From Naegleria gruberi (lineage: Eukaryota), in NCBI GenBank assembly GCA_000004985.1, contig GG738926.1: a stretch of 64,000 nucleotides of DNA; one strand, written 5' to 3'. Both the position numbers and the translations under genes were made by a program. Each line of letters starts with the position of its first letter. Position 1 is the stretch's first letter. The notes beneath the pieces are model-generated. The model was not told where the DNA came from and did not search any database. It saw nothing but the letters and a program-made list of their open reading frames with translations. Shown one piece after another: positions 5,901 to 59,757 of this stretch.

Positions 5901-8900
5901 ACAATGTCCTACACTGGCTTTGAAGAAGTGCCAATCGTGTTGCTCAATACTGAAAAACAATACTATGGAAACAAACTCACAATTACTGCTTCTTTTATTG
6001 ACCCGATGGTTGAATATTTGTTGAGTAGTAATAGTATTAGTGTTTCATGGTTTTGTTTTAGAGGTACTTCAAAGACTGGTCCTTTTTCTGCCTATGACTG
6101 TACTTCTCAAACTAAGGAATTAATCATTGGAGAATCTAACCTTATTGAAGGATACCATCAATTCCAATTCACAGCCACTTTGACAAATTCAAAAATCACA
6201 TCCGTTACCAAAACAGCAATTGTGCAAGTTGTTAAAACAAATATTCCAGATATTCTCTTTGACTCTGTTCCTCCAGTTTATCCATCATCAAGAAACTTGG
6301 TATTGAATGCAGTTATTTCTTCTTCCACGCAAATCGGTAGCGTTGTGTGGCAAGTAACCAAGGGTAATTTACTCAATGAGAATATTCTTAGTCAATCAAG
6401 TACTCTCTCATTGGATGGATACAATATCAAATCAACTTTGGTTATTGACAAGTCTTATTTATTACAAGGTGATTCTTATACATTCACTGTTACTGCTTCC
6501 AATGGTATTGGCTCTTCAACTGCAGCTGTTTCAACTGTTATTGATGTAGCTCCAAGAATTGCTTGTCAAGCCTATGACGCAGCCATAACCAATTCCGTTA
6601 TCTATGCTTACTCTAGTGATGTGGTAATTGATTGTGCTTCACTCTCTGACTACTCAATTGCTTCCTATCATGTCGATATATATGCCAACTCAACCAGGGT
6701 AATGACAGTATCTAAAACAATGAAAAAGACTTTTATTACAAAGGTACCATACGGTCCAAATGGAAATATCAGACTGGATGTACGAGCTGTAAACAAGATT
6801 GGATCTATTTCATCTGCTTCTATTGATCTCAAGGTTTCTCTTAAAAATACTGATAACACCCTCGCTGGAAGAATTGGATTTGCTAGTTCTGAATATGAAA
6901 GCAACAAAGCAAGCTTTACAAGATTAGAAAGTGTTGTTACTATGCATTCTTTATTGTTACTTATTATTCAACAAAATTCTGTTAGTGAATTTGCCAGTAT
7001 AGACTCTACAGCCAAAACTACTCTCACCACCTTGATAACCAATATGTTAACTACTTTGAGTGGTCTGAAGAGTATTAGTTACAACGCAGATGACAAATTA
7101 GCTCCTGTTTTTATTCCATTTGCAAATGATGCTTACAGGTTACTTGCTGTTATTTCTCCAACTACAGTGGCTTCCAATGCTGATCTACTCACTTGGGTTA
7201 AATTCTTCATAACGTCATTCAATGATTACAAGACATATTATAGATCTACAGTTGTACCTACTATTTACGACTCTAAACACTTGACAGAAATTGATTCCTT
7301 GATAGGTATTGGCGCAAAGTATATTAGTGATAGTAGTTTCAGTCCATTATATAAGGAAACAGCTATTATTTCCAAATTGATTACTGACGTTACCAATTCC
7401 ACAACAACGACAACCTCCACCATCGTGGATTCCAGTGGTACGGAGACAAGATTTGATATTGTTGACAGAATTCAACAACTGAATGCCAAGACAATTACAT
7501 TCGCTAATTATCCTTCAATTTCTATTTCCTTCCCATCAGATTTCTACTCACAACTCGGTGTTGAAAATTCAGGATCAGGAGTAACCCTCACTTCTGCTGT
7601 TTCAACCTCTAAATATTCCCAACTAGTAAGCCCTTCTGTTGATATTTCTCTTTCTACCTCTTCAGACGCTGTTATTTCTGTGAGTGGATTGCAAGGAAAT
7701 TTGATTCAAATCAATTTTGGCACCTTATCACAACCTAAAGCTAACTTTACCAGTTACAATTATACTTGCAGATTCTTGAATACTACCTCATCACAATGGA
7801 GTCAGTCAGGAGTGTCAAGCTCTATTTCCATTTTGTCAGATGATGGCCAAACTGTCACCTTTTCTCTTTCATGTTTAACTTCTCACTTGACTTCTTTCGG
7901 AGTTGTTTCTGCTATCATCCCTCCAACATCACAATCTAAAACAGTAACAACAGATAATACTGGTGTTGTTGTTGGTGCTGTTTTGGGTACACTCTTGCCA
8001 TTGATTTTGATAGCTGTTATTGTTGTCGTAGTGGTGATAATTGTAATTATTTTATACAAGAGAAAGAAATCTCTCGACTCATCACAAGTTCAAAATGTTG
8101 AATTGGTCAATAAGAATGTTTCAAGTGTTCATATTAGTGACTTCCCTTCAGAAGAAAGCACTCACTTTAAGCAATTGGTTAGTGTATCTTCTGGATCTAC
8201 TAATTCTGATCCACTTGCAAGATATGCTGATATGGTAAAGATTGGACAAGGCGCATTCGGAAGTGTGTTCAAAGGTGTTGATACAAAGCAAGCAGGAAAG
8301 TTGAAGGCCATCAAGGTTATTAGATTTAATTCTGTTGGTGAATTGAACAATATGCTCAAAGAAGGAACTATGCTCATGAACATTGATCACCCACATATTC
8401 TAAAAGTCAACGAGTTTATTATTGACAAAGATAACATTCTCTGTATTGACACAGATTTCTGCGAAGATGGTGATTTGACCAAGCTTACTCTTTCTGCAGA
8501 GCCAATCCCAGAACCAATCATCAAACAAGTAATTTATCAAATGTGTTCTGCTTTGGCCTTTATTCACAACAAGCTCAAGATTATTCACAGAGATGTTAAA
8601 CCACACAACATTTTCTTGAAAGAATTGACAGATTTTTCAGTTCAAACAGTTTTGGCTGACTTTGGTCTTGCTAAACAAGATCAAAACAACAGCATGAATT
8701 CATATGCTGGTACACCACTTTGTAAGTTTTTATTTTTAATTATTTAATTAACAACCAATTAAATAGACATGAGTCCAGAACTTGCCCTTGGAGGTAAATA
8801 TAACTATAATACTGACACTTGGTCTCTTGGTGTTGTAGCCTATCAATTAATGACTAAAGATATCACAACTGCTCTAAGTCATTTGTGCTTAACAGGAGAT

Positions 8901-9125
8901 TCAGAAGATACTAAGAAGAGAATTAGAGCCAAATTGGATGAGACTGGTCAATACTCTGAAGCATTGAAAGAGATTGTCATTTCCATGTTAGAAAAAGATG
9001 CTGCATCACGTCCATTTCCTCAAGAATTAGTCGATCGTCCTTTCTTCCAAGATTATAGACCAAAGAAGAAGAAGAATAACATTTTCAGATCCAGTTCTGC
9101 AGGAGAAGATGATATGTATATGTAA
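2951..9125 (+). CDS. Receptor Ser/Thr protein kinase with an NHL-repeat + tenascin-type EGF-repeat ectodomain (about 2030 aa)
   Basis: Exons are 2951..3707, 3751..8721 and 8767..9125. The introns are 3708..3750 and 8722..8766, both GTAAGT...TAG. It opens with a signal peptide (MRSHNIIGCFLFTLLFIMIFGSWVSNA). NHL-like repeats are recognisable (YIVGANNKVVKY, LLVMDNVNRLRKVSNG). About 9-10 repeats follow of the form C-x11-13-C-S-G-x-G-x-C-x5-C-x-C-x2-(Y/F)-x-G-x2-C. A roughly 900-aa S/T-rich ectodomain leads to a TM helix (AVLGTLLPLILIAVIVVVVVIIVIILY). The kinase domain carries GQGAFGSV, AIKVI, HRDVKPHN, DFG and GTPL-Y-MSPE. The Tyr codon of that last motif is split by intron 2. Confidence 0.8.
3990..5060. 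repeat. Tandem array of about 9-10 tenascin-type EGF repeat units (period about 93-99 nt) inside the receptor kinase ORF
   Basis: The protein shows a reiterated motif ...C(Y/F)G..S...S.VCS.(R/H)G.C.....C.C...Y.G..C. The alternate and reverse frames of this Cys-codon-rich array produce the spurious His/Val-rich ORFs in the track. Confidence 0.75.
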
Positions 9126-18903: not shown

Positions 18904-20585
18904 TTGAAAATGCTCAATACAACACTTCATAAACAGAAAAAGAAGGTGAGCAAGAAATCTCAACCTAAAATTCACCAAATTACCATCTCTAAATATATCA
19001 ATGATAAATATGCTCTAAAATCTGTTGAATTGGGAACTGGTTCCTTTGGGGATGTTTATTTGGGAGAGGAAACAGATCCGATCACTAGAAAGAAGAGAGA
19101 TGTGGCTATTAAGAGAGTGAGATTGGAAAGATATGGTCCTGAACATTTCAAATATTTGGTGGCAGAAATTGAAATTATGGCTGGTTGTCAAAATGAGTTT
19201 GTCATGTCACTTGTTGATAAAATTGAAATTCCAAGAAAGGAACTCTATTTGGTAATGGACTTGTGTGAGGCAAATTTTAAATATTACATGAATAATGCAC
19301 GAAAGAGGAGGCAAGATAAGAGATTGCCTTTACTTTCAGAGAAGGAAATTCAATATTGGATAAAACAAATTAGTAGTGGATTGGGATATTTACATTTGGA
19401 AAAGAAGATTTGCCATCGTGATATTAAACCACATAATTTGCTACTCAAGAAAAAGGGTCACGAAGTTGCTTTTGATTTCTATGCCAAGATTGGAAATTAT
19501 GATGAATATACCATTCTGATTAGTGACTTTGGTCTTTCCAAAGTGTTGGATAGCAATCCAATTGCAGAGACAATTCTTGGAACTCAATGTTATAGATCTC
19601 CACAGCTGGCACTCTTCCAACCATACTCATTCGATGCAGATATATTTGCTTTGGGTGTGGTGCTGTTTGAAATGATTGCTGGTTACTGCTTGTTTGGTGC
19701 TCAAGTTACTAATCCAAAGCCAAAATATGGTGAAATTATTAGTACTTTAACAGAGAATATTGACTGGAGCTTTTTATCTGATGCACTTGATATTTCTCCA
19801 GAGCTGGTAGATCTTCTCTCTGGCATGTTACAATTTGAAGTGGAGAAACGTTTGAATATTGAACAAATTTTGCAACATCCCTTCCTTAATATGGATTTTT
19901 CAGAAAGTGAAGTTACTACTACCAGGTCATTCCATCTGAAACTATACCAACTGTATCATATATTGAAATTCCTCTTACTACCACTACTACAACTGACAAT
20001 GATTCTCCAAACAACTCAACTCAACAACAGCAACAAGTTCCTGTACAAATTATACTACCAACCAGCGAGGAAGAAAAAGAAAAAGAATTGCCAGTTAACG
20101 AACCAATCCAAGTAATACAGTTGGAACGTGATGAGCCAACTCCTACAACCTTTTCAGAATTTGTCTCCTTCTCCTATGAAAGAGTTGGACTGCCCCAAGA
20201 TTATACACGAGTAAGCATTATCAAGGATGAGATTGGTTGTGAACCTGCCCTTGTTAAAACTGAAAAAATTTCCAAGAGCAAACACTCCAAAGTTCTCATT
20301 CTTCTCAGCAGTGACAGCAACAAGGCAATTAATTATTCAATCAAGGTACTAGAGTCGCCAGTCAAACACACACAAACAGGAACAGTTTCTTCTACTGTGG
20401 AATATGAATTGGAGAATATTGAAATGGAAATGATTACTCTAGAGTTTGAATTTACTCATTCTCTCACCAACAGATGGCTTTCTTATTTCACAACTCCAGA
20501 ACAGATTCCATTCACTATTGAAATTTATGTTCAATCGAGAATTCCAGAACATACCTCAACTCTTTCTATTGAATCAATCAATTAA
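18904..20585 (+). CDS. Cytoplasmic Ser/Thr protein kinase with a T/S/Q-rich C-terminal tail; the reading frame switches near 19911-20066
   Basis: The kinase domain is in the frame of ORF 18904..20115 (GTGSFGDVYLG, AIKRV, HRDIKPHNLL, DFGLSK, SPQLA). After ..SESEVTTT that frame degenerates into low-complexity junk. A second frame stays open from 19911 to 20585 with a plausible tail (..IPSETIPTVSYIEIPLTTTTTT..QQQQQ..EEEKEKELPVNEPIQ..) and has no ATG of its own. I read it as one gene with either an unusual intron or an indel. Confidence 0.55.
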
Positions 20586-22887: not shown

Positions 22888-25800
22888 ATGAAACTATTAA
22901 ACTTGTTTATTTTTCTAATATTATTTCCCACACTAATTTATTCATCATCCGCAGAGGATACGAGAAATTATTCCAGCTCATCCATTAATAATTCGAATAA
23001 TTTTCCTTCATCCTCTTTGAAAACTAATGTTGTTAACTATTCGAAAGGAATTAATTTACAAATAATTTATTACATTAATTCTGATGATGTCAAATATCAG
23101 AATACAACTTGTCAAGACGAAAGTCATCCATGTTCAGATATGAACCAAGTGATCTTGGCAGCAAATACGAAACTATTCGAAATATTTCATGAAAATGATC
23201 AAACTAAATTAGATTCTTTTACAATGATTGTCATGATTGATTCGAAATTGGAATGTAACAAACTGCTCTTTGATTTTTCAAATTATACGAAACGATTCGA
23301 AATGAGGTGGAAAGGATACGAAAATGGTTTATTCTCTGCTTGTCTAAATAGTTTAGATGAAAATTCCATTTTAGATGCTTTCACTGTTGAGAATGGAAAG
23401 ATTTCAGGCGAATTGAATAATAGATTAGGTATCAAGAATTTGGAAATTCGAAACTGTCACGATGGTGGAATGATTTACTTTTATACTAAAATAGAAAATT
23501 TGCTGATTGCTGACAGTTTCTTTCATGAAGATACTGAAATAACTGAGATTACAAATGTACGAGTGGAAAATACGCAATTGGATGATTTTGAAATTGTTTC
23601 GAATGGAGCAAGTGTTGAAATTTCAAATTCTAAAATTCAAGGAATTGTTGATTTGCAGAATTTTAAATCATTTTCTATTCGAAACTCAATTTGGAAAAAT
23701 AACCGAGTTCATGAGGATTATTCATCAACATTTAATTTAGGACAAGATGTTTCATTTGATAATGTAACAACTAATGCTAAAATTGTGTTTATTTCAATCA
23801 AGTCAATCAAGATGAATGGGCTAATTGTACACAATTATGGAAACGGATATTTCTTGTATCAAATGATACGAGTTTCTCATTTCTATCTAAGCAACAGTTC
23901 GTTTGTGGGAAATTTCGTGCTCAACAACTATTTACTCTCCTTGCAAATAGTTGAATCTATACAAATTGAAAATTGTACAGTTTCTAATAATGTTGGAGGT
24001 TTCATCATGGTAACAGATGCTACTTTGATAATGGGACAGGTGAATATACGAATTAGTAAGAGTGTATTTCAATCCAACGAGATGCTGTCAGATATTGCTC
24101 TAATTGACATTGTGGATCAAACAAGAGAGATGTATTTTATCACAGTTGACCATTGTAAATTTTTGGAAAATACAGGAGAATCCACTTTACACATTGATGG
24201 AGGACTTGCCCAAATTTCCAATTCAGACTTCTACTTTAATATTGCAAACGAACATGGTACTGCATACTTGAATTGCTATGTTACAATTTCAAACTCTAAA
24301 TTCATCGCTAATCAAGCCAAGTTAGGAGGAGCCATTTACATTGGTCCTGCTGGAAATATTGATGCATCTCAAACAATTGATTTTACTTGTGATAATAATT
24401 GGGCAACCTACGCTGGAGGATGCATTTATTCAGAAAATTTGGATTTTTCAAAATTGAAACGCATGAATGGAACTAATATTGCTAAATATTATGGAAATGA
24501 TGTGGCCACACCTATTGTGAGTCTGGATGCTACATTTGATGAGGTAGATTCTAATGGAAATATTGAGGTTTACCCAGGTCAAGCATTCCAAATTAATTTT
24601 TTCCCAAGAGACAAGTTCAATCAGAGCACCTCTTATTTATTGAATCAATATTTGTTTATCAATTCAGAAAAAGGTCATTTTACAATCTCTCAGAATTTTT
24701 TAGATGGAATCCATTCTATTCCAGTAGTTTTGCAAATATTTCCAATTGACGACTACAACCCATCATTGCCACCACTTGTAATATTGATTTCTTCAAAAAT
24801 TGAAATCAAAATTCCTGTAAATATTCTCCCATGTCCAGATAGTTCTTTCCTGAAATTATCTCAAAATGGACATTACTGTGAACAAATTCCATTAGCAGCG
24901 ATTCTGTCATCTGTAATTTTGGGAATTATTTTGATAACCATTATATTGGCAGCATTAATAGTGATAGCTAGGAAATTATTGAAATTGAGAAAACAGGAAC
25001 GTGCTGAAAAGAAAATGGAGCTATTGTTCAAAGATAAGGAATTTATATTCGAAACAGAACAAGCACCTCTATTACTTTCTAATACCATCAACAGTAGTGA
25101 TTCAGGTGAAAGTAGATCAATAATTGGAAACAGGCAACAATACATCATTCCAATTTCTGAAATTAATATTTTGAAAAGAATAGGAGAAGGTGGAATGGGT
25201 GTCGTATATCACGCGAAGTGGAATCGAACTGATGTTGCCATCAAACAATTGAAAACAGATTCCAATGATGAAGAATTCGAAAATGAAGCAATTTTAATGA
25301 GCTCACTTCGACATCCATGTATTGTGAGCTGTTTTGGAGTTTCTCTGACAACCAATGGAAAATATATGATTGTAGAATATTTGGAAAATGGAAGTCTAGA
25401 AAAGGCAATTTATAATTCAAAGATGGGAAGAGCAATTTTGAGATTTGAAACCAAGTTGAAAATATTAACTGATGTTGCCAAAGGATTAGTTTATTTACAT
25501 TCAATCAAACCTCATAGAATTATTCATAGGTATGTTTACTACTTTTATTGGAATAGATATTAATTATGGAATAGAGATTTGAAACCAGGAAATTTATTAC
25601 TCGATAAGAATATGAATGCAAAAGTTGGGGATTTTGGATTGAGCAAAATTGTTTCGAATAATTCTGCAACAATGACAGCAAATGTAGGAACTTTACTTTA
25701 CATGGTAAGTCTAGATAATTTCACAAATTGAATTAAATTGTTATCAATTTAGGCGCCAGTAAGTAATTTCGAAATTTAATTTATTAAAATTTCGAATATT

Positions 25801-32862: not shown

Positions 32863-34275
32863 TTAAAATTGGCTTGACTGGAGCAAATTTGTCTTACATC
32901 GACTTGATATTTCAGAATACATTTCAGAATACCAACTTTCTGGCAGGGCACCTTGGAGAGCCATTTTGTTCATCAGTTCGGTATCATCCAAATATTTCAA
33001 ATTTCCCAATCCAAATAATTGTTCTTTTCGTTGATTGAATTCTTGTTGTGAGAAACGCCACATGAAACCCTTCTCCCTGGCCAAGTTTACAAAGAAATAA
33101 TCGTCAATGAGTGAGGGATGGACATATCTCAGAACTGCAATGTTTTCCTGAACTAATTCTTTGACTAGCTCTAGATTAGTTTGAAGCTCTTCGGAGGCGT
33201 ATTCAATTGAGCGAGGTTGATTTTTGACAGCCTCTGTGAGGATTTCAAAGTTATTGATAATTTTTGGATAGGATTTTAGATATTTCAAAATCAAGCCATT
33301 AATGGAGGCAAATCTTAATATGAGATCAGGAGATCTCTTAACTTTTCTATGAACAAATTCGAATAATCTGATATCCTTTCGAATAACATATTCTATAATA
33401 TCCAAATCCCTTTTAATGAATCCAGGAGCAACTCTGAAAGCTTGAGGATTGACCATTATCAACCTACGCATAAATCTTCCACTATTTCTGAGTTTCTTTG
33501 AAATACTTGGCACTAAACCAGGAGACAACACACAAGCCATGTGTATAATTTCTCTATCTTCTGAAAATTCAGATAAAATAATTTCCAAAAATGTTTTACA
33601 CGACCCAATCAATTGTGTGTAATTTTCCATGATTTTCAGAATGAGATCTCTATTATCCTCAATGAAAAATTCAACAGGTATATATGAAATAGCCTTTGGA
33701 TATTGTCTCAATAGTTCCATTACAATATCTGGATCGAAGGAGAAAGGTTTCGGCAGTGAGAAATAATTAATGGCATCATGGCAGACCAATTGTAAAGCAT
33801 CCAATCTCTTAATGGACTTGTTTTTGAGAGGTTTCACTGTAATGGGACGATCCATAAATATCTTTTCAAGGTTAATTTCATCAGTGATAATTTGAAATTG
33901 TTGAATGGCAGGTGAATTTCTAAACAATTTACTGACAGCTCGCTGGATTTCAGGACTGAGTGCATAATTATATGTAAAATAGTCATGAGTAGTGAAAAAC
34001 TTGGCCAGGAATGTAAAACTCTTCGAATACTCAATTGGAATGTAATCATAATCTCTCGACATGTCCTTCCAAAATTTTCTGGGAAGAGAAAACTTCTCTC
34101 GGAGCCAACTAAATTGTTCCGAATACTTTTCCTGACAAAAATCTATAAGTATAACAACTGTAGAATAATCAGTGTTATTCCCAACCGATGCCGATGAAGA
34201 ATATTTGGTAAATTTGGTCGACGGTTGGAATTCGTTTTTTTCGAGTTGATTTTCTGCTGTTCGCTTTTTGTGCAT
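32863..34275 (-). CDS. Repeat protein with DUF4116-like repeats (about 470 aa)
   Basis: The real ATG is at 34273-34275 (the track ORF starts at an upstream TTG). The recurrent motif ..A(V/I)(K/S)..P..I.Y(A/I)S.EL(Q/R)..(L/R)E(L/I)V..(L/A)V.. (e.g. AVKNQPRSIEYASEELQTNLELVKELVQENIAVLRYVHPSL) resembles DUF4116 repeats. This assignment is from memory of that family. Confidence 0.55.
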   Translation of the reverse strand: MHKKRTAENQLEKNEFQPSTKFTKYSSSASVGNNTDYSTVVILIDFCQEKYSEQFSWLREKFSLPRKFWKDMSRDYDYIPIEYSKSFTFLAKFFTTHDYFTYNYALSPEIQRAVSKLFRNSPAIQQFQIITDEINLEKIFMDRPITVKPLKNKSIKRLDALQLVCHDAINYFSLPKPFSFDPDIVMELLRQYPKAISYIPVEFFIEDNRDLILKIMENYTQLIGSCKTFLEIILSEFSEDREIIHMACVLSPGLVPSISKKLRNSGRFMRRLIMVNPQAFRVAPGFIKRDLDIIEYVIRKDIRLFEFVHRKVKRSPDLILRFASINGLILKYLKSYPKIINNFEILTEAVKNQPRSIEYASEELQTNLELVKELVQENIAVLRYVHPSLIDDYFFVNLAREKGFMWRFSQQEFNQRKEQLFGLGNLKYLDDTELMNKMALQGALPESWYSEMYSEISSRCKTNLLQSSQF

Positions 34276-34444
34276 TTTTTTGGTTTTTTTTGGAATTTTG
34301 TTTTGTTTGAAGGTTTGCAGAAAATTTTGCAAAACTCAAATTGTCAATAATCAAATGAATTAATGAAGAAATAATTGATTTTAAAATCATGGAGTTGTAG
34401 ATATTTGTGTAACTTAAAGATTGAATGCAAAAAATCTTGGTGGT

Positions 34445-37403: not shown

Positions 37404-40400
37404 ATGCGAACAATTTTTGTGATATGCATTGCTGTTGTGGCATGGTTTATTCTTCTCTTTCTAACAAGTGAAATCCACTGTCAAACTGTCAAGTATTCAT
37501 TCACTGTTTATCAGAAGGATTTGTCAGGGCCATATTGTGCAGCAAAATCTCCAAATAGTGATGCTGTATACATGTCTGAATATAGTGGACATCGTGTGAA
37601 GAAGAAATCCTATCTAGGTCTTGTTGTTATTGCAGGAACAGGATATGAGGGTTTTAATGGTGACATTTTGGCCAAACAGGCCAAACTGGATAATCCTGGA
37701 GGTGTTCTAGAATATAACAATGAGCTGTATATTATGGACTATGGAAATAATAGAGTGAGAAAGATTAACAGTGAAGGTGTTCTGGTAACAATTGCTGGAA
37801 CTGGTACACGATCTTCAGCAGGTGACAGTAAGTTTTATTTCACACAATTGAATAGACATTCTTTCTTCTTGGCATCATAATCTCACACATTAAAGATGGT
37901 GCAGCTACTTCAGCATCTCTCAATGGACCTTGGGGTATTCATATACCAAGCAATGGAGATATATACATTACAGAATATGTCGGAAATAAGATAAGAAAGA
38001 TTAGTGCATCTGATAATAAGATTTACCTGGGTAAGTGTTTTCAAAGATTATTGTTTATTCATTCCGAAATAATTAGTGGCTGGAACAGGATCATATGATT
38101 TTTCTGGAGATGGTGGCAATGCTGTTAGTGCAAAATTGAAGAGCCCTTGGAGTGTCTTTGTAAATGCAATTGGTGAAATATTTATTGCTGATACGGATAA
38201 TGACAGAATTAGAAAAATTGCAACAAATGGAATTATAACAACTATTGCTGGCTCTGGATCGAGTACTAGTGATGGAGTTCTAGCAACTACAGCTTCTTTG
38301 AAAAAACCAACCTCTGTCTTTATTTCACCAGCAAATGAACTATTCATTGCAGGTATGTGTTTTCACAATTTCATTAATGAATTTTAACATGTCTATTAGA
38401 GGCTGATGGTGGTAGAATCAGAAAGGTCGATCTGTCAACAATGAAAATTTACACAGTTACTAGTTCACTGAATTATCCAACATTTGCATTTGTTGCTGAA
38501 AATAGTGATCTATATATTACAGAGAAAAACAACAACCAAATCAGACTTGGAACAGCTTATTGTGATAGTGGTTATCAAATTAATTCGAATGGAACTATTT
38601 GTAATCCAGTGTGTAATTCACAAATTGGAAGAGCTGGATGCAGTAATCATGGATCATGTACTAGTCCTAATACTTGTACATGTGATACTGGTTATACATT
38701 ATCTGACTGTTCTCAACCTATTTGTTATGGAAAATATGGAAGTACTGCTTGTAGTGGAGCAAATCAAGGAACTTGCTCTGCTCCAGATACTTGTCAATGT
38801 AAGAATGGATTTTCTGGAAGTGATTGTAGTGTTTATTATTGTGGAGGGGTTGTTGCAAGCTCAGCAGGTGTCTGTTCAGGTAAAGGAACATGCTCTGCTC
38901 CAGAAACTTGTTCTTGCCAAACAGATTACGTTGGATCAGTATGTCAATATCCTGTGTGTAACAGCATTCCTTCAAATAACCCAAATGTTTGCAGTGGTGG
39001 TGGTACATGTACTTCTCCAAATTCATGCCAATGCTTTACAAACTATTCAGGAACTCAATGTCAGTACACTACTTGTTCTGGAATAGATAGTACCAATTCG
39101 AATGTGTGCTCTGGTAGAGGAAGTTGTGCAAAATATAATAATTGCACATGCACAGCCAACTTCTTTGGCTCAAATTGTGAGCTCACTCAATGTTATGGAA
39201 TTATTTCAAATTCAGCTTCCACATGCGCTTCACATGGTAGATGTGATGGCTACAATAAGTGTACATGTGATTCTAATTATTTTGGATTGGACTGTAGTGT
39301 AACAAGTTGTTATGGAGTGTGGAGTAATACTTCTAGTGTTTGTACTGCACCAAACAGAGGTACTTGCAATTCCTACAATAATTGTACCTGTACAAACTCG
39401 TATTATGGAACTCAATGTCAAGATTATGATTGCTTTGGAATTAACAAATCTAATAGCTCAGTATGTTCTGGTAAAGGAGCATGTTCTGCACCAAATACTT
39501 GTTTGTGCTCTGATTCTAATTACTCTGGTTCTAATTGTGATGCAGCTGTGTGTTATGGAATTTCAGCAAATGACTCTAGAGTTTGTTCTGGATCAAGAGG
39601 TGCCTGTAACTCTCCAAACACTTGCTCATGTTTTTCAAATTATTTTGGACCTCAATGTCAATATACACAATGTTATGGTATTGACAGTTCCAACACAACT
39701 CATGTTTGTTCTGGTAGAGGTACTTGTTCTGATTTCAATAAGTGTGTTTGTAAAGATGGATACTATGGATCCAATTGTCAACTCAGCAAGTGTTTTGGAG
39801 TTTTATCAAATAGCTCAAATGTTTGCTCAGGTCACGGAACTTGTTCGGATACAGATACTTGTAATTGTGATTCTAATTATTCAGGTAAAAATTGTGATAT
39901 TACATCATGTTATGGAACCTCAAGTACAAATCCACTGGCATGTTCATCTCATGGCTTTTGCTCGTCCTATAATAATTGCACCTGTTCATCAAACTATTAC
40001 AGCCAACAATGTCAAGAGTTCAATTGTTTTGGTGTGAATAAGGCATCTACAAGTGTATGTTCTGGTCATGGTACTTGTTCAGATATTGATACATGCTCCT
40101 GTACAGGAAACTGGATTGGAGGAAATTGTAATCTCACAACCTGTAATGGTGTTTGGAATTATAATTCATCTGTTTGTTCTGGAAACGGTGTTTGCTCATC
40201 TCTGAATAATTGTACATGTAATGTAGGATATTATGGTGCTAATTGTGATTCCTTTGATTGTTTTGGATCTGTATTTACAAACGAAGGTATTTGTGCAAAC
40301 AATGGTTCTTGTACAGGTCCTGGTGTTTGTTCCTGTATTGATGGATATTCTGGATCTCGCTGCCAATATCCTATTTGTTATGGCATTAGTGGTGGTAGCT

Positions 40401-43400
40401 CAAGTGTCTGTTCTGGAAATGGACAATGTATTGATAGGAATATATGTTCGTGCAGTGCTGGATGGACTGAAAACACTTGTAATGTGACAACATGTTCTGG
40501 TAAAAGAAGTGATAATTCATTAGTTTGCAGCTCTCAAGGTTCATGTGTGGGACCAGATAATTGTTATTGTAACAAAGGTTACACTGGACCTAATTGTGAA
40601 TTTAATGTCTGTTATGGAAAGAGTCAGAATGATTCTTCAGTTTGTTTAGGCAGAGGTAAATGTTTGAAACCAGGCGAATGTACTTGTAATACTGGATTTA
40701 GAGGTACAGAATGTCAATATTATCAAATTGATTTTGATGAGAAATTGGCCACTCTCAAGCCAACCCTAACTTCAGTTCTACAATATTCATACCTTTTCAA
40801 TGGAACATGTGAAACCTTATTCGAAAGTAGTGATTTACCAATAATTGGTGAATCTCCAATATGTTTATGGGATAGTAGCAAGATGATTATTTATTTAGGT
40901 TTTGGAACTCATCTTCAAACTGGCAATTTACTAAGAGTGAAGAATAGCAACTTAGCATTCTTTGTTGATACAAGCAACTCTCTTTCCTATACTGGATCTG
41001 GTATTACGCTCAAGAAATTGATGACAAATGTTCCAACAAGTAATCCTTTACCTCTTAGACCTATTGTTGATAGCAATTTCCAATCCTACACCAATTTCTC
41101 AAGTTTAGTTTGGTCATGTATTAGTTGTTCTACAAGTTTGAATGATTACTTGAAATCTCAACAACGTGAATATCTCTACATTCCTCCATCCTACTTGAAA
41201 TCTCTATCAGCATTATATCTGCAATTAGCAGTCTCAAATTTTGCTTCTAATTCCAAAGTTGCAAGTCTTTCATTTACGTTTTCTCAATCAGCTGCTCCTA
41301 ATCTTGATTTAATTACTGACCTGAATAGTGATTCACAAATTTCTTGCACAGGATATGACTGTATTATAGAAACAGAACCAATTGGTTATGGAAACAATGC
41401 AGGATTATTCTTAGGTTCATACCCATCAATCAAATACAATGTCTACCTGTCCAGATTTTTCTACACAGACAGCAGTGGCATTTTGGGAAGTGGATCTACT
41501 ACTGGAAGTGTCTTGCTATTGGCCAAACATACACAATCCACAACTTCAAAAGATTTCTTCATTCAATATTCATTCAATGCCTATGAAAATAAGCTTCCTG
41601 TTGTTATTTCAGCAACAAATCCTGTCTTTTCTCCTTCATCTTTCATTAGATTTAAGGCAACAATCTTCAATCCAATGGTATTCGTGAAAACCGTTCAAGA
41701 TACATATTATCTTTGGAAACTCTTCAAATTTGACGAAACAGGAAAAGCTAAACAAATGAGCACTGAAATTTACATTGATCTGAATTATGATGAAGTAGTT
41801 GTACAGAGAGAATTGGAGGCAGGTACATATTTAGTGAGTCTTAATGCAGTAGCTGCTTATGGATCTACTCTCATGAATACTACCTTTACTGTATTGAACA
41901 CAACAGATAGATTGGCTTCCATCAGTTTTTCTCCTGTGCCAACAATAGTTTCAATTTCAGAAGATTTGACAATTACTGCAACAATTAATGGAACCATAAC
42001 ATCATTTGAATGGATTCAAATTTCTGGAAGGATAAAACCATTGTGCTCTTTGCAAAAAGTAACAACACAACCAAGTGAAAATATTACACAAAGCGAATTG
42101 ACTATAACCAGAGATTGTCTTTTTGAAGGTGAAATTTATATATTCAAGGTTGTTGCTAACAATTCAAATGGCATTTCGTCTTCAGCTGAAATTCAAACTC
42201 AAACAGATATCTCACCAAGTATTCATTGTGATTTTTATTCTACATCTGAAGATGGCTCTTTCGTTGCATTGGACAGCACCTTGCTAATGACATGTAGAAA
42301 TGGAGCTAAGGATACTATCAAATCTTACACAGTTGAAATTCATTATAATGGAGAAAGAAAGTTTATTGTTTCCAATACTCAAAAGAGAAACCTCTATTTT
42401 AGAATGCCTTATCTAATTGAAGGAAGCCAATTGGTTGTCAGAGGTCTCAATTTTTATAATACTGAAGTCATTTACAGAAAGAATTTAACATCAACTCTGA
42501 CTTCTACTGACAAGGTTCAACTCTTTATTGATGGTTATAATAGTATTACAACTAGTGAAACAACAAGTTATTTTGGAGCTATTAATTCTTTAAATTCTCT
42601 CTTGACATTATTTGAATACCAACAATTTGATTCGCTTGAAAATAAGAACTCTCTCCAAACTACTTTGAAATCCATGCTCAGCCTAATCTCTAATCTGAGA
42701 GCTACTGGTGTCAATGTTGATGACAAACTCACTGCTCTCTTACTTCCTCCAGTGTATAGAATTCACAAATACTTGGATAGTATTAATGGAACTAGATCAA
42801 GTGATGATTGGAGAGTTGATGATCTCCTTTCTTGGACATCTTACTTTACTGAGTCTATTCTCAACACCCTTCAATACTATTACTCAACTCAATGGAAATT
42901 CCTTATTGATCAAATTCATTTGAATGAATTGGATGAACTTATCGAACTTGGATCGAGTATGAATTCTGAAAAATTTGTTCTCGTTCAAGTTCAATATGAA
43001 TTATTAACAGATAGCTTGAATGGAGTCGCATCTAAGAAATCACAAACACAGCTCTCTAATGGTATCTTGCTAAGAGAAAAATTGGACTCTGTCGATTCAT
43101 TGAGAAGTCACATTATTAACTTGTACTATTCCAACACTAATGTTTCGATTCAATTCCCATCTGATGTTGCTGATACTTTAGCTTTTGGAGATACAACCAC
43201 AGATAATTCACTCAATTCATTTGTTAAAGTTTCCAAGACTACAAACTCAAAGATTATTGGTGTCATGACAAGTGTCAATATTCAAACTCAAAAATTCAAA
43301 GAATTGGAAATCCAAAACCTTACCACCTCCATCAATATTGCATTCACAGGCTCTCAATATCCTTCCTCCAATGTAACTTGCAAATATTACAATTCCTCAT

Positions 43401-44760
43401 CTCAAGAATGGCTCACTAATGGTGTTCAAACTTTGATTTCTTCTTCCAATAATTTGGTTACCATTTCTTGCTTGACAAATCACCTTACAACATTTGCAGT
43501 TTTCAAGAATGATATTATTTACATTCCACCTACAAATTCTACTACTAATGGCGTACAAACTTCTGATCCAGCTCTTGCAATTGCTCTTGGAATTATTCTT
43601 CCACTTTTGGCAATTGCAATAATTATTGTAATAATTATCATTGTTGTGATTCTGGTATTGAGATATAGAAAGAAGAAACTTTCCTCTGAAGTTTCCAATA
43701 CTTCAGCCATTGAACTGAGAAATGAAAATAAGAGAGGATTATTCGATACTGACATTTCAGACTTCCCTTCAGAAGCAAGTGTCTATTTCAAACATTTGAA
43801 TTCTTCCTCAATGGCTTCAACTGTTTCTTCCACATCTTCTTCTAATGATCCATTCTCTCGTTACAAGGACATGGTTAAAATTGGAGAAGGTGCTTTTGGT
43901 TCAGTCTTTAAAGTTATTGACACTAAAAATAACAATAAGGTGAAAGCCATCAAAGTTATTCGATACAAATCAGTGGAAGAATTAAACTCCATGATGAAAG
44001 AAGGAACTCAATTAATGAACATTAGCCATCCAAACATTCTCAAAGTGAATGATTTCTTTGTGGAAAAGGACAATTTACTATGTATTGACATGGATTTCTA
44101 TCCACAAGGTGATTTGAGTACCTTAATCAACCAACAGGAAGATTGTAAAGAAGTACACATCAAGCAAATTATTTATCAAATGTGTCATGCTTTGCATTTC
44201 ATTCACAATGATTTGAAATTAATTCACAGGTAAGTTTTTTAAGTTTTTTTATGGAATTTCAACAACAAATTCAATTCACAGAGATGTCAAACCTTCAAAT
44301 ATTTTCATCAAGGTATTAAACGGAAATGTCATCCATACAGTATTGGCAGACTTTGGTTTAGCAAAGGATAATAAGAATTCAGCAAGTATGAGCTTTGCTG
44401 GTACTCCACTCTGTAAGTATTTTCATAACTGTCAAAATTCATAAACATCAAATAGACATGAGCCCAGAATTGGCATTAGGAGGTAAATATTATGCCAACA
44501 CAGATGAATACTCTCTCGGAGTGACTGTCTATCAATTAATTACCAAAGACACCATGACTGCCATCAGTCACTTGTACATGTCAAAAGACGCAAAAGAAGT
44601 ACAAACTCTTACACGAAAACGTTTGAAGGAGAGTGGTGATTATTCTGATAGATTAATCGATATCTGTCTACAAATGTTGGAAAAGGATAACTGTGCACGT
44701 CCATACGCTCAAGATATTTTGGAAAATTCATACTTTAATGATATTAGAAAGATTAGATAA
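37404..44760 (+). CDS. Receptor Ser/Thr protein kinase with an NHL-repeat + about 18 tenascin-type EGF-repeat ectodomain (paralog of 2951..9125), 6 exons
   Basis: Exons are 37404..37827, 37896..38030, 38077..38352, 38400..44229, 44282..44412 and 44456..44760. The introns start GTAAGT, GTAAGT, GTATGT, GTAAGT, GTAAGT. It has a signal peptide (MRTIFVICIAVVAWFILLFLTSEIHC) and NHL repeats (YIMDYGNNRVRKINSEGV, YITEYVGNKIRKISAS, FIADTDNDRIRKIATNG). About 18 EGF repeats, a long S/T-rich ectodomain, a TM helix (LAIALGIILPLLAIAIIIVIIIIVVILVL) and a kinase domain (IGEGAFGSV, AIKVI, IHR|DVKPSN, DFGLAK, GTPL-Y-MSPE) follow. Confidence 0.8.
38600..40715. repeat. Tandem array of about 18 tenascin-type EGF repeat units (period about 93-105 nt) within the second receptor kinase
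   Basis: The reiterated motif is C(Y/F)G..S.N.S.VCSG.G.C.....C.C...Y.G..C. The spurious His/Val/Leu-rich ORFs in the track (38484..39086, 39312..40037 and others) are alternate-frame products of this repeat. Confidence 0.75.
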
Positions 44761-45007
44761 CATGTTATTGAATAAACCAACACAATATTAGTAATATTTG
44801 TCATGATATCAAAATTTGCCAGGCTGTGTTGTGTTAAAACATCAACAATATTGTTGATGACATTTTGACGGTTGAAAGATATCATCTCACACACAAAACA
44901 TATCATCACGAAATACAACAATTATCATCATCACAATACAACAACAATCAACAACTAAATTATATTTAAAAAGCTATTTTATTCTTCTGCACAAGTTTGC
45001 ATCAAAA

Positions 45008-51510: not shown

Positions 51511-53799
51511 TTACAGGTCCAACATTTCCATACACTTTTCCTTGATTGGTACAATTCTATGAGCTCTTCTATCTATGGTTTCAATCTTTTCGACAATTTC
51601 CATACATTTCTTGTATTGTTGATCACTATAACACTCAACTGCATCAGCATACAAATCACAAACATTGATTTCTGCCTCTGGAGCGTTCTCAGTTTCACAA
51701 AGGAGCTCATAAATTACTAATGGCTTGGTCTTACCCTTAACAGTAACTGAATCTAATGGAACACAGAATAATCTATTCGAAACTTGAACATAAGTAGCTT
51801 GACTGATGGCAAGATAAGTTCCATAATTCTTATTAATTCCTTCAATACGAGAAGCAGAGTTGACATTATCACCCAATGCTGTATAATTCATTCTTTCAGG
51901 AGTACCAACATTTCCAATAAAGGCAGATCCTGTGTGAACTCCAATTCTTGTCTTGAATTCTGGAAGACCCTTCTTTTCCCATACTCTATATAGATCTTTC
52001 AATTCTTTTTGAATTCTGAGTGCTGAATTACATGCTTTGTAAGCATGATCTTCAATTGCGAATGGAGCATTCCAGAATGCCATGATAGCATCACCTAATT
52101 TCAATGTCAGTTATCAATGAATAATTGAAACTTACCAATAAATTTATCGACTGTACCTCCAGATTCAATAATGTGATGGGTTGCTCTTTCTAGATATTCA
52201 GAAAGACATTGAACAAGAGTATTAGGATCCATCTTTTCACAAATTGTTGTAAAGTTTTCAATATCTGAGAAGAGCAAGGTCACATTCAATTCTTGCACTC
52301 CAAGACATGCTTCCTTTGAACTTTCTAATAAAGCTTTTACAAGAGAGCTAGGAACATATTTGTTAAATGAACGAAGACCAAATTTCATCTTGTCAACAGC
52401 TAATTGAATTTCTTTGACTTCTGTCAAGAAACTTCTACGTTGTTTTTTTGAAGAAATTTCCAATCTAGCAATCTTGTTAATATCCTTACTAAGGGATGAT
52501 AATGGAAAGGTAATCAACAAGGAGAACACAAAGACAACTGCAGCACCGAATATCATAATTCCCAAACTGATCAACAAACCATTTCTGAATTGAATCCAAA
52601 TGTCTCCCAACACGTCAATTTGTGGAGAGAAGATTACAATAATCCAATCCATTCCATTAATTGAGGATGAGTAACTGTATGGAATGGCATTAACGTCAAC
52701 ATCATAACCGTTCCATTGAATACTAGTAGAAGCAGTTCCATTCAATTTCTTCAAATCATACAAACTTAATAATTTCTGGTAACCTTCTTTTACAAAAGTT
52801 GTGTTGCCTTCGAGTGGAGTTGTCTGAACTGGAATTCCATTCTTAATAATGTATGAAGGATCAGAAGGAGATGAAGAACCAATCAATAATCCGTTTCTGT
52901 CTATTAACATGGTCACTGCATTCTTTGAAACTGGTGTGCTTTGCATGAAACTTGATAATGACCTGCCGAATGTAACAGAAGACCAAGCATAGTGGAATTC
53001 TCCATCAACCCAAAAAGGAGTCACATACGAAATGTAAAAATCTGGATCGACCTGATTGTAACCAACATCCGTCCAACTTTCTTTTGGATTCGAAACATTC
53101 ATCAATTTCCAATAGGGTGATTGAGTGTTATCAACACCAGGAACGTGTACAATCAAATTAACTTCACCACTTGGAGTAACCACAAAGAAATCAGCTCCTT
53201 CCTTTGACACAAAGAGTCCATTAGCAAAACTGTAAATGTTCTGAACTCCCCATGCATAGTAACCTGTCTTGTCTCCTACTGAAGTAAATATAGAATCTGG
53301 ATTCATACCCTTGAAAACATTATACATGTGATTTACAACTAAAGTGGATTGATCTGTTGTGTTGAATAGTTAAAACTTAAAAAACAGTGCTCTACTTACT
53401 ATGCAGATCCCACTTGAATGTCATGAATTGATTCTTATAAATAGTTGACAAATCAACGGCTGGCTTGAATTTAGTATTAAGGTAGTTTGCAAGATTCTTC
53501 GCATAACCTTCCTTTAATTTCGTGTTCATGTCCAACACTGATGTATTACCCGTGTTAAAGCCAATGAACCAGGTAATAATCAAAACGACGAGAACAACCA
53601 ACACGAGAACACACACCAGCAACAATCTAATAGAGAATAAAAAGTTGAGGAAGGAATAGATAGACCGAACAATGAAAGGAGTCTTATCTTCCCCGTAGAA
53701 TAGCGAATCGACAGAATGTGCCTTGTGGAGAGCATATACATCTGCCTTGGAACTGTTTTGTGGTGTTACCACTGGTTGAATACTTGGTGATTTGACCAT
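51511..53799 (-). CDS. Receptor-type class III adenylate/guanylate cyclase (two TM segments flanking an extracellular sensor domain), 3 exons
   Basis: Exons on the minus strand are 53400..53799 (ATG 53797-53799), 52136..53338 and 51511..52094. The introns are 53339..53399 and 52095..52135, both GTAAGT..TAG. TM1 is LLLVCVLVLVVLVVLIITWFIGF. An extracellular domain of about 300 aa and then TM2 (LLISLGIMIFGAAVVFVFSLLITF) follow. The cyclase motifs are VTLLFSDIENFTTICE, KFIG|DAIMAFW (split by intron 2), RIGVHTGSAFIGNVG and YTALGDNVNSASRIE. Confidence 0.75.
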
Positions 53800-58338: not shown

Positions 58339-59757
58339 ATGTTCCTAGATTTGACAGTTGGCGAAATGATTGTCATTTCAGTCTATTGGGCATTGATGGT
58401 GATCTGGTTCAGTTATGGAGTTGTAAATCAAGCAGATCCTTTCATTCCAAGAAAGATTTCTTCTGGATATGTACAAATGATCATTTTGAATTACATTTTC
58501 CTGTTCATTCCTGTAACTAGATATAATGTCTTGCAAGCATTATTCGGTATTTCATTTGAAAGGTCTTTGAAATTCCACAAGTGGCTTGGTTTTATGATTT
58601 TTGGATTTGCTACTGGACATGGTGTGACGGAATTCGTTTCATTCAGAGATAACATACCTTACATGTTCTCTGCAGAGGATCAATTCCCACTATTTGGAAT
58701 AATTGCTTGGTTATCTCTTGGATTATTATTGCTCTTCTCTTTCAATCCTATTAGAAGAAAGCTCTATGAATTATTCTTAGTTTTCCACATTCCTCTAACT
58801 TTGGTCACTGTCACCTTCTCAATCATTCATGGAGAAGGTTGGATTAATTTACTTCCTTATATGGGATTTTCAATTATTTTAATGGTAATTGATTGGGCTT
58901 TGCGTTTAATTATTGGATTTGGAATTCCAACCAAGTTGACTCAGATATCATACGATGAGGATTCTGAAGTAACAACCTGTGTATTTGAAAAAAGATTCTT
59001 GACATTCTTCCATGATCCAAACCATGCTCACTATGTTTTCGTCTACATTCCACAAGTTTCCATCTACCAACTTCACCCAATGACAATCAGTTCCTCTGTA
59101 AAGCTTGAAAATGGAAATCATCAATTCATATGCCATATTAAACGAATGGAAGGAGGTACATGGGCAGCCAAGCTTGCTCAATTGGCTAAATCTAAGAAAA
59201 TGGTTTCTGAATACTACGGAGTCAGAGTGGAAGGAGCATATGGCAACTTGTCAATTCCATTCTTTGCAAAGAAGAATGATCAGAAGAGAACCATTGTATT
59301 CATAGTTGCGGGAATTGGAGCAACTCCTTGTAATGCTATTTTGACAGCACTAGAAGATCCAAAATATAACGATCCAACTCCTTATAAGGTATATGTTAAC
59401 TTTACAATGAGAAATGAGGCAACTTTGGCCCAAATGAGTAAGATTATGCAACAGAAACCAAATGTTGAATGCTCATTCTATGTAACTGGTGTTAAATCTG
59501 TGAAAAAATCAATAGAGTTAATGGAGAAGGGTCAGGATAATAGCGAAGACAAGAGATTTGTCAGAGGATCAAGACCTAACTATGTGGAATATTTGGAAAA
59601 GATCAAATCTCAAATTATTCAATCAAAATCACTTGAATATGTTTCTGTTTTTGCTTGTGGTCCATCTAAAATGATGAATGCAGTGCATAATGCTGTGTGG
59701 ACATGCAGTGATTCATCTTGCCGATTCGAGTTGCACAAAGAAGAATTTGAATTTTAA
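58339..59757 (+). CDS. Ferric reductase / NADPH oxidase (NOX)-like transmembrane oxidoreductase, 472 aa
   Basis: Real ATG. It has six TM helices with paired heme-ligand histidines (HKWLGFMIFGFATGHG ; FLVFHIPLTLVTVTFSIIHG). The FAD-binding motif is HPMTISS and the NAD(P)H-binding motif is IVAGIGATP, with C-terminal CGPxxM (FACGPSKMM). Confidence 0.8.
   Translation: MFLDLTVGEMIVISVYWALMVIWFSYGVVNQADPFIPRKISSGYVQMIILNYIFLFIPVTRYNVLQALFGISFERSLKFHKWLGFMIFGFATGHGVTEFVSFRDNIPYMFSAEDQFPLFGIIAWLSLGLLLLFSFNPIRRKLYELFLVFHIPLTLVTVTFSIIHGEGWINLLPYMGFSIILMVIDWALRLIIGFGIPTKLTQISYDEDSEVTTCVFEKRFLTFFHDPNHAHYVFVYIPQVSIYQLHPMTISSSVKLENGNHQFICHIKRMEGGTWAAKLAQLAKSKKMVSEYYGVRVEGAYGNLSIPFFAKKNDQKRTIVFIVAGIGATPCNAILTALEDPKYNDPTPYKVYVNFTMRNEATLAQMSKIMQQKPNVECSFYVTGVKSVKKSIELMEKGQDNSEDKRFVRGSRPNYVEYLEKIKSQIIQSKSLEYVSVFACGPSKMMNAVHNAVWTCSDSSCRFELHKEEFEF

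Follow-up and report, generated by a model that had tools for sequence, protein, structure and literature searches.

Two genes for large receptor kinases lie on the same strand of a 64,000-nucleotide stretch of Naegleria gruberi DNA (contig GG738926.1 of assembly GCA_000004985.1), here called the window. Seven neighbouring ORFs (open reading frames) are exact matches to proteins of N. gruberi NEG-M, NAEGRDRAFT_75601, 75602 and 82145 among them, which all come from a single scaffold of 174,974 bp. The downstream gene (37404..44760, here copy 2) is our main subject and the upstream one (2951..9125, copy 1) is its paralog; both genes, and all of their features given below, are on the + strand. 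Copy 2 is an intact N. gruberi gene for a type-I membrane protein, and in both copies a domain that we assign to the GAIN family, with a candidate GPS autoproteolysis site, stands just before a single transmembrane (TM) helix and a Ser/Thr protein kinase domain. The original prediction had described these genes as NHL-EGF receptor kinases; that architecture is common to both, and what was overlooked is the GAIN/GPS domain and a stalk of about 590 aa that precedes it.

The copy 2 model is a complete receptor kinase gene of six exons (37404-37827, 37896-38030, 38077-38352, 38400-44229, 44282-44412 and 44456-44760), which splice into an open reading frame (ORF) without internal stop for a product of 2,366 aa; splicing of this predicted model restores the kinase motifs. 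The copy 1 model has three exons (2951-3707, 3751-8721 and 8767-9125) and its 2,028-aa product is identical at every residue to the public protein EFC36719.1 / XP_002669463.1 / UniProt D2W2I6. EFC36719.1 carries the source name ‘basal body protein NBP-2’, which is unexpected for an NHL-EGF-GAIN receptor kinase of this size; a literature search found no paper explaining ‘NBP-2’ and we take the name as a label, not as a result. When copy 2 was searched against the window by tblastn, copy 1 was the only paralog match (36% identity over 1,751 aa, E=0, same strand), with an unrelated kinase at about 19.0-19.9 kb also picked up. Copy 1 lies 34,453 bp upstream, with about 18 ORFs of at least 150 aa in between, which bears out the earlier claim of a second copy of the same architecture and orientation 34 kb downstream of the first.

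The exact protein model of copy 2 is missing from public sequences, as might be the case if copy 2 were a pseudogene in decay or had arisen from copy 1 through an assembly error. We regard this as very improbable: the spliced ORF runs for 7.1 kb without a stop, the catalytic and GPS residues are all intact, and in the comparison of the two kinase domains the proportion of nonsynonymous differences (pN, 0.28) is far under that of synonymous differences (pS, 0.73). At only 36% identity to copy 1, copy 2 is too different to be that gene collapsed or duplicated in assembly.

The predicted GAIN domain of copy 2 (aa 1640-1981; 42482..43507) consists of a helical subdomain A and a beta-sandwich subdomain B, and the corresponding region of copy 1 (aa 1278-1639; 6825-7910) is assigned as GAIN by homology. 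Searched as an isolated segment, copy 2 matches the Pfam GPS family PF01825 (aa 1938-1979; 43376..43501) with E=1e-6 and 29.6 bits, over the cutoff of 22.5 bits; the relatives P0015, P0016, P0017 and P0025 also match GPS, with P0015 (23.2 bits) the only one of these four above the cutoff. Both copies close the region before the membrane with SCLT(N/S)HLT(T/S)F, in which the putative cleavage triad is H1973-L1974↓T1975 in copy 2 (43481-43489; NHL↓TTFAVF) and the equivalent HL↓T at 7884-7892 in copy 1 (SHL↓TSFGVV; arrows mark cleavage sites here and intron positions below). Across an alignment of 18 family sequences the C, G, C, H, L and F are invariant, the W is nearly so, and the cleavage position is T or S. 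A profile built from these 18 sequences matched solely the GAIN domains of adhesion G-protein-coupled receptors (GPCRs) among PDB sequences, with ADGRL3 best (E=6e-5), followed by ADGRG1, G3, F1 and D1, and with HLT aligned on HLT. AlphaFold2, given the same alignment, returned a model with a mean local confidence (pLDDT) of 84.2 and a predicted template modelling score (pTM) of 0.77, with seven helices and then a beta sandwich that ends in the strand TFAVFK, from beyond the cleavage site; a model from a 2-sequence alignment (pLDDT 48) was discarded. Known proteins invariably have their GAIN domain immediately ahead of the first TM helix (Arac et al. 2012, PMC3321182), and the placement of the candidate domains of copy 1 and copy 2, just before the TM helix, fits this rule.

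The TM helix of copy 2 (aa 2003-2034; 43571..43666) is a hydrophobic run followed by RYRKKK, the positive-inside residues being read from the sequence; that of copy 1 is at 7977-8060. The kinase domain of copy 2 (aa 2100-2359; 43862..44736), which has two introns inside it, matches Pfam Pkinase at 1.9e-49, and that of copy 1 (8223-9047) does so at 1.1e-49. GxGxxG, VAIK-Lys, HRDVKPSN, DFG and SPE motifs are complete in copy 2, and its nearest PDB kinases are NEK1, ULK3, NEK2 and MST3. The Pfam fold and the motifs make this a kinase domain, with enzymatic activity as a prediction: in its motifs it is catalytically complete and NEK/STE20-like and, by the pN and pS values above, it evolves under constraint.

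The extracellular part of copy 2 begins with a putative signal peptide (aa 1-25; 37404..37478), a hydrophobic N-terminus (MRTIFVICIAVVAWFILLFLTSEIH) read from the sequence. A six-bladed NHL beta-propeller follows (aa ~40-332; 37521..38560), identified by Pfam (TEN_NHL 1.6e-18, NHL 5.6e-8) and by blade motifs, and interrupted by three phase-1 introns. Six hYIh blade motifs are present in each copy, and in copy 1 it is these, together with an alignment to copy 2 at 25-28% identity, that lead us to assign an NHL propeller. Next come 18 six-cysteine EGF units in copy 2 (aa 350-1050; 38612..40714; period 39-41 aa), counted by regular expression and matched by Pfam EGF families, and nine contiguous units in copy 1 (aa 337-687; six-cysteine pattern), with a linker of 4 residues between units throughout both copies. 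Pfam EGF_2 is matched at 4e-56 in copy 2 and 7e-30 in copy 1, EGF_2/EGF_Teneurin matches occur in both, and copy 2 also matches EGF_TEN at 1.7e-48. The original prediction gave about 18 and about 10 units; the first count holds and the second is 9.

Some 950 residues, from the end of the EGF array to the single TM helix, are without a full-length Pfam match. The first part of these in copy 2 is the beta-rich stalk (aa 1051-1639, about 590 aa; 40715..42481), for which sub-threshold PKD matches and an FN3-like motif suggest at least one FN3/PKD-like module. No Pfam family matched the stalk above threshold, PKD-type models reaching only E 0.02-0.06. A stalk profile searched against PDB sequences matched titin FN3 through the motif LxxGxxYxFxVxAxNxxG; these FN3-motif matches were to titin only, and that search gave no REJ or PKD assignment. 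The stalk region is kept in four Naegleria homologs.

Both copies thus belong, by sequence, to the GAIN, EGF and protein-kinase domain families, with NHL assigned by profile in copy 2 and by alignment in copy 1, and the whole is reminiscent of several known systems without coinciding with any. Adhesion GPCRs (BAI3/ADGRB3, latrophilin/ADGRL3, CD97/ADGRE5, GPR126/ADGRG6) have a long adhesive EGF ectodomain ending in a two-subdomain GAIN, with the GPS HL↓T just ahead of the first membrane helix, and are the best structural and profile matches to the Naegleria GAIN. Unlike them, the Naegleria proteins have one TM helix and a Ser/Thr kinase, no seven-transmembrane (7TM) core and no HormR domain, keep one predicted GPS disulfide and have a longer linker from cleavage site to membrane. 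Neither copy has a 7TM Pfam match, and a single hydrophobic helix is followed by the kinase, so that these are not adhesion GPCRs. Polycystin-1 and the sea-urchin REJ proteins, of which suREJ1 is single-pass, share with them a large ectodomain with Ig-like (PKD/FN3-type) modules and then a membrane-adjacent GAIN/GPS; the Naegleria proteins differ in lacking REJ (PF02010), PLAT and the 11-TM channel-like part, and in having a kinase as output. There was no Pfam REJ, PLAT or polycystin channel match and PKD-type matches (E 0.02-0.8) fell below cutoff, so that they are not polycystin/REJ proteins either.

Among the Pfam models matched by the EGF units and the NHL propeller are those of teneurin type (EGF_TEN, EGF_Teneurin, TEN_NHL). 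Teneurins, however, are type-II proteins with a YD-shell, a toxin-like C-terminus and no kinase, whereas the Naegleria order is NHL then EGF in type-I orientation; only the EGF and NHL sub-models match, and with a putative signal peptide at the N-terminus and a kinase at the C-terminus we do not place these proteins among the teneurins. The transmembrane kinases (TMKs) of Entamoeba and the receptor-like kinases (RLKs) of plants resemble them in having a signal peptide, a repeat-rich ectodomain, one TM helix and a cytoplasmic Ser/Thr-type kinase, and also in their lineage-specific expansions; the Naegleria kinase, in contrast, is closest to NEK/ULK/STE20 and not to IRAK/Pelle or TKL. We know of no protist or plant single-pass receptor Ser/Thr kinase, Entamoeba TMKs and plant RLKs included, with a GAIN domain. 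The architecture is like that of an adhesion GPCR or polycystin-1 outside the cell and of a protist or plant receptor Ser/Thr kinase inside it.

A search of 1.84 billion representatives with a profile of the two stalks returned four full-length homologs of the same architecture, N. fowleri FDP41_013523 and N. gruberi NAEGRDRAFT_70317, 49308 and 70916, together with many shorter Naegleria NHL/EGF/GPS/TM proteins, one of them named ‘GAIN-B domain-containing protein’ by UniProt. The segment of copy 2 from GAIN-B to kinase had no relative in JGI metagenomes. The family is Naegleria-restricted, with five long members in N. gruberi, one in N. fowleri and many kinase-less NHL/EGF/GAIN-B/TM proteins. 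Compared domain by domain, the two copies are 59% identical in the kinase, 47% in the EGF units (1-9 of copy 1 against 10-18 of copy 2), 29% in GAIN, 26% in the stalk and about 25-28% in NHL, and synonymous differences are saturated (pS 0.64-0.73). With overall identity at 36% and synonymous sites saturated, the duplication is ancient, not recent. In a neighbour-joining tree of 1,093 gap-free columns downstream of the EGF array the two copies are sisters with 99% bootstrap and the N. fowleri gene is next; a kinase-only tree with more taxa groups an environmental short receptor (protein P0092, contig L004) with copy 2 at 90%.

This environmental gene (L004 1227..3301, on a contig of JGI metagenome 3300002220) encodes a compact NHL-TM-kinase relative with a signal peptide and a very regular NHL propeller. 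Its kinase is 67-69% identical to that of copy 2 and the two have the same juxtamembrane motif, DFPS(D/E)ES.YFKPL; it has no EGF array, stalk or GAIN, and its frame breaks at other positions. Evidently the family swaps ectodomain modules.

The gene models agree with the original prediction in having five introns in copy 2 and two in copy 1. All five in copy 2 are of the form GTAAGT/GTATGT...AG. Intron 1 (37828..37895; 68 nt, phase 1, in GD↓N, GTAAGT...AAAG), through which read-through meets a stop, and intron 2 (38031..38076; 46 nt, phase 1, in YL↓V↓AG) are absent from copy 1; intron 3 (38353..38399; 47 nt, phase 1) comes after ELFIA↓E in blade 5 of the propeller. Intron 4 (44230..44281; 52 nt, phase 2) occurs in copy 2 only and lies inside the Arg codon (AG↓A) of HRD, and intron 5 (44413..44455; 43 nt, phase 1) splits the Tyr codon (T↓AC) of GTPLYMSPE and is common to copy 1. 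In copy 1, intron 1 (3708..3750; 43 nt, phase 1) comes after DIYII↓D in blade 5 and intron 2 (8722..8766; 45 nt, phase 1), where read-through meets TAA, is in the same Tyr codon (T↓AC). The shared position in GTPLYMSPE was claimed to be identical in the two genes, and it is so to the base and in phase: each gene has its Tyr codon split behind the first base, and the two sites share one alignment column. The HRD intron, which had been placed between Arg and Asp as specific to copy 2, is indeed absent from copy 1 and falls within the Arg codon instead. In all, three introns of copy 2, the HRD intron included, have no counterpart in copy 1, and homology of the third NHL intron to the first intron of copy 1 is ambiguous.

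DNA of four relatives, L001 to L004, was compared in addition to copy 1. L001 (the N. fowleri gene) has no intron in its NHL or kinase parts, L002 (a contig resembling NAEGRDRAFT_49308) is one uninterrupted ORF, and L003 (encoding P0017) and L004 (encoding P0092) read straight through HRD and GTP(F/L)(Y/F)M, so that L004 is without both kinase introns. Among these six genes the Tyr-codon intron is common to copy 1 and copy 2 only, and the simplest reading is that it predates their split; should the kinase tree be correct, the P0092 lineage must then have lost it.

None of the five related genes with DNA, copy 1 and L001-L004, has the HRD intron. A 9-nt direct repeat, AATTCACAG, stands at the end of exon 4 (44221..44229) and again at the end of the intron (44273..44281), and extends to 14/15 with one indel; in the window, 313 other GT-flanked AG...AG pairs with intron-like spacing were compared, and not one showed a repeat as long as 6 nt. 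Intron gain, whether by repair of a staggered break or by local duplication, is known to leave direct repeats at exon end and intron end. A gain of the HRD intron in copy 2 is favoured because it is absent from five relatives and because of this repeat, and we consider such a gain probable; copy 2 most likely gained two NHL introns as well. Just upstream of the direct repeat, at 44187-44228, Tandem Repeats Finder (TRF) reports a 21-nt imperfect repeat.

Could the three introns found only in copy 2 instead be ancestral, copy 1 and the other homologs having lost them, for instance when reverse-transcribed mRNA recombined with the gene? Naegleria genes are intron-poor; the intronless L002 and the N. 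fowleri gene without NHL and kinase introns indicate that loss happens in this family, and L004, which is also without the Tyr-codon intron, requires at least one. For the HRD intron, however, this history needs independent losses in copy 1, L001, L002, L003 and L004, and it leaves a 9-nt repeat that no control pair matched, so that we think it unlikely.

The first intron of copy 1 (DIYII↓D) and intron 3 of copy 2 (ELFIA↓E) have the same phase, the same site within a blade and the same ordinal blade (5 of 6), and may thus be a second shared intron. In two public proteins, P0002 (NAEGRDRAFT_70317) and P0004 (NAEGRDRAFT_70916), the annotated kinases end in GTPLFM followed by VCYLSILWHVNSNIYYC and a stop, and in GTPIFM followed by VSFFNSSLIINKFSLLNLA and a stop. 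The tails begin with VCY and VSF, which back-translate to GTATGT and GTAAGT, and their 18 and 19 codons plus stop are of intron lengths typical here. From these read-through tails we infer an unannotated phase-0 intron right after the Met codon, the annotated kinases being truncated by it; the inferred intron would lie 5 nt from the Tyr-codon position of copies 1 and 2, as one member of a near-intron pair.

The earlier suggestion that the EGF arrays are expanding and contracting by unit duplication is not borne out in the window. Pairs among the 27 units of both genes are all 24-62% identical (mean 41.1, sd 6.8); identity within the genes (40.8 and 41.3) equals the between-gene mean (41.3), neighbouring units are no more alike (mean 40.5%), and TRF found no period of about 117 nt in either array. 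No pair stands out, and the units of the two genes essentially interleave with no sign of local duplication, an outcome that the original prediction had itself named as counting against it. The sole positional signal is that copy 1 units 1-9 match copy 2 units 10-18 in order (47.6%, where permutation gives 41.1±2.1; P=0.0014). This weak collinearity suggests that copy 1 units 1-9 correspond to copy 2 units 10-18; the other nine units of copy 2 appear equally old. Copy 2 was also considered as a doubled 9-unit block, and this was rejected, since the diagonal of its units 1-9 against 10-18 (39.5%) is no better than background.

The same analysis applied to N. fowleri as a positive control recovered EGF unit pairs at 98-100% identity. 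There, FDP41_013523 contains a tandem duplication of about 500 bp (L001 2970..3970, on VFQX01000019) at 90% DNA identity, comprising three EGF units and a GTAAGT intron. A second N. fowleri record, CAG4715597.1, does not contain these 124 aa of duplicated protein, which reflects either a strain polymorphism or a difference in assembly or annotation. Active expansion and contraction by single-unit duplication in both window genes, giving 18 units against 9, would be in keeping with the twofold difference between these paralogs, with the range of about 8 to 13 units in other family members and with the N. fowleri duplication. Yet the uniformly low pairwise identities, the failure of adjacent units or of units of one gene to resemble each other more closely in a comparison that does detect the N. 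fowleri pairs, the lack of a TRF period, and the diagonal that argues against block doubling make this explanation quite improbable. By these sequence comparisons block duplication shapes EGF arrays in the family, as in N. fowleri, with no recent event in the two arrays of the window.

What might such a receptor do? We propose that the NHL/EGF ectodomain binds a surface or matrix ligand; that GAIN self-cleaves at HL↓T, the two fragments staying joined non-covalently; that ligand or mechanical load on the N-terminal fragment alters the state of the membrane-bound fragment; and that the altered membrane-bound fragment would change the activity, or the oligomerisation or clustering, of the cytoplasmic kinase. 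Copies 1 and 2 would then be autoproteolytic ‘adhesion receptor kinases’, cleaved at HL↓T with the fragment retained, in which mechanical removal of that fragment or ligand engagement switches a single-pass Ser/Thr kinase. We put this last reading forward tentatively, with the odds against it. Invariance of H, L and F, and retention of T/S, in 18 members against a background identity of about 25% argues for selection on the catalytic triad, and this strict H-L-(T/S)-x-F conservation tilts the balance toward cleavage.

The GAIN domain could instead be a non-cleaving spacer in an ordinary single-pass receptor kinase that works by ligand-induced dimerisation, neither autoproteolysis nor a tethered peptide playing any part. 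Cleavage does not occur in some GAIN domains despite an intact triad, and several animal adhesion GPCRs with GAIN domains remain uncleaved. In the family alignment the GPS retains only half of its canonical cysteines (two of four) and tryptophans (one of two), and there is no 7TM pocket to receive a tethered agonist. The distance from the cleavage Thr to the start of the TM helix is about 27 residues in copy 2 and about 23 in copy 1, longer than the 5-6 residues of linker that follow the cleaved strand in adhesion GPCRs (PMC3321182). Against such a spacer stand the invariant H, L and F and the strict T/S at P1' in 18 diverged members whose surroundings are about 25% identical, and we rate it a serious possibility, short of even odds.

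Taking receptor architecture, ancient paralogy, intron history and proposed mechanism jointly as the best overall explanation, we give it a probability of about 0.7. Besides the degenerate GPS, the long linker and the existence of uncleaved GAIN domains, several observations weigh against it. The GPS of copy 1 scores 17.2 bits (E=0.008), under the Pfam cutoff of 22.5, and copy 1 has no Pfam NHL family at E<=0.1. In the kinase-only tree copies 1 and 2 pair with just 47% bootstrap. The NHL blade register is ambiguous: alignments (global and E-INS-i) and a 6x6 score matrix of the blades are at odds with the ordinal count, and sequence similarity pairs blade 5 of copy 1 with blade 4 of copy 2. To choose between intron gain and loss there are few outgroups, and the genus is intron-poor. 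The exact model of copy 2 and three variants of it had no match among public proteins, so that the public annotation of copy 2 differs or was not retrievable; its splice sites, expression and GPS cleavage are all predictions.

An imperfect tandem repeat of 23-25 nt (ATCATCATCACAATACAACAACA, about 3 copies; 44881..44950) lies just 3' of the copy 2 stop, in intergenic DNA or the 3' untranslated region. The window holds further signalling genes (18904..20115, 22888..25563, 52107..53327, 32863..34332 and 58339..59757), which comprise two unrelated kinases, a Cache-domain protein with an adenylate/guanylate cyclase start, a DUF4116 protein, and a NOX-type ferric reductase adjoining a DOMON protein; LRR/F-box, RGS and BTB-SPRY genes are likewise present.

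A paralog pair with differing intron and repeat counts is ordinary comparative genomics, although the locus is a small, clean case of intron turnover, in which one intron is common to both genes at the very same base, another is a probable recent gain flanked by its repeat, and a near-intron pair is inferred 5 nt away in two other paralogs. A GAIN/GPS directly before a single TM helix and a Ser/Thr kinase predicted to be active, in a free-living amoeboflagellate far from animals, is not ordinary. Dictyostelium and Tetrahymena are reported to have GAIN domains too, in every case ahead of the first TM helix, in a paper that makes no mention of kinases (PMC3321182), and a 2025 survey found GAIN outside holozoans in non-GPCR genes, which it did not describe (PMC12716839); current accounts pair GAIN with 7TM or polycystin cores (PMC3321182, PMC12716839). 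Within the library of papers that we searched there was none on GAIN-kinase receptors, and no relevant one joining GAIN/GPS with Naegleria or with a receptor kinase. The genome was published in 2010 and copy 1 was already annotated, so that what is new here is the recognition of a family of GAIN-coupled receptor kinases.

If the ‘NBP-2’ label reflects a real localisation, there would be a parallel to the ciliary location of polycystin-1. If cleavage occurs, Naegleria would offer a simple system for the role of GAIN without a tethered-agonist pocket. And if our proposal is true, the use of GAIN as a general switch that senses force or shedding would extend to Discoba, eukaryotes distant from animals, with an output other than a 7TM or polycystin core.

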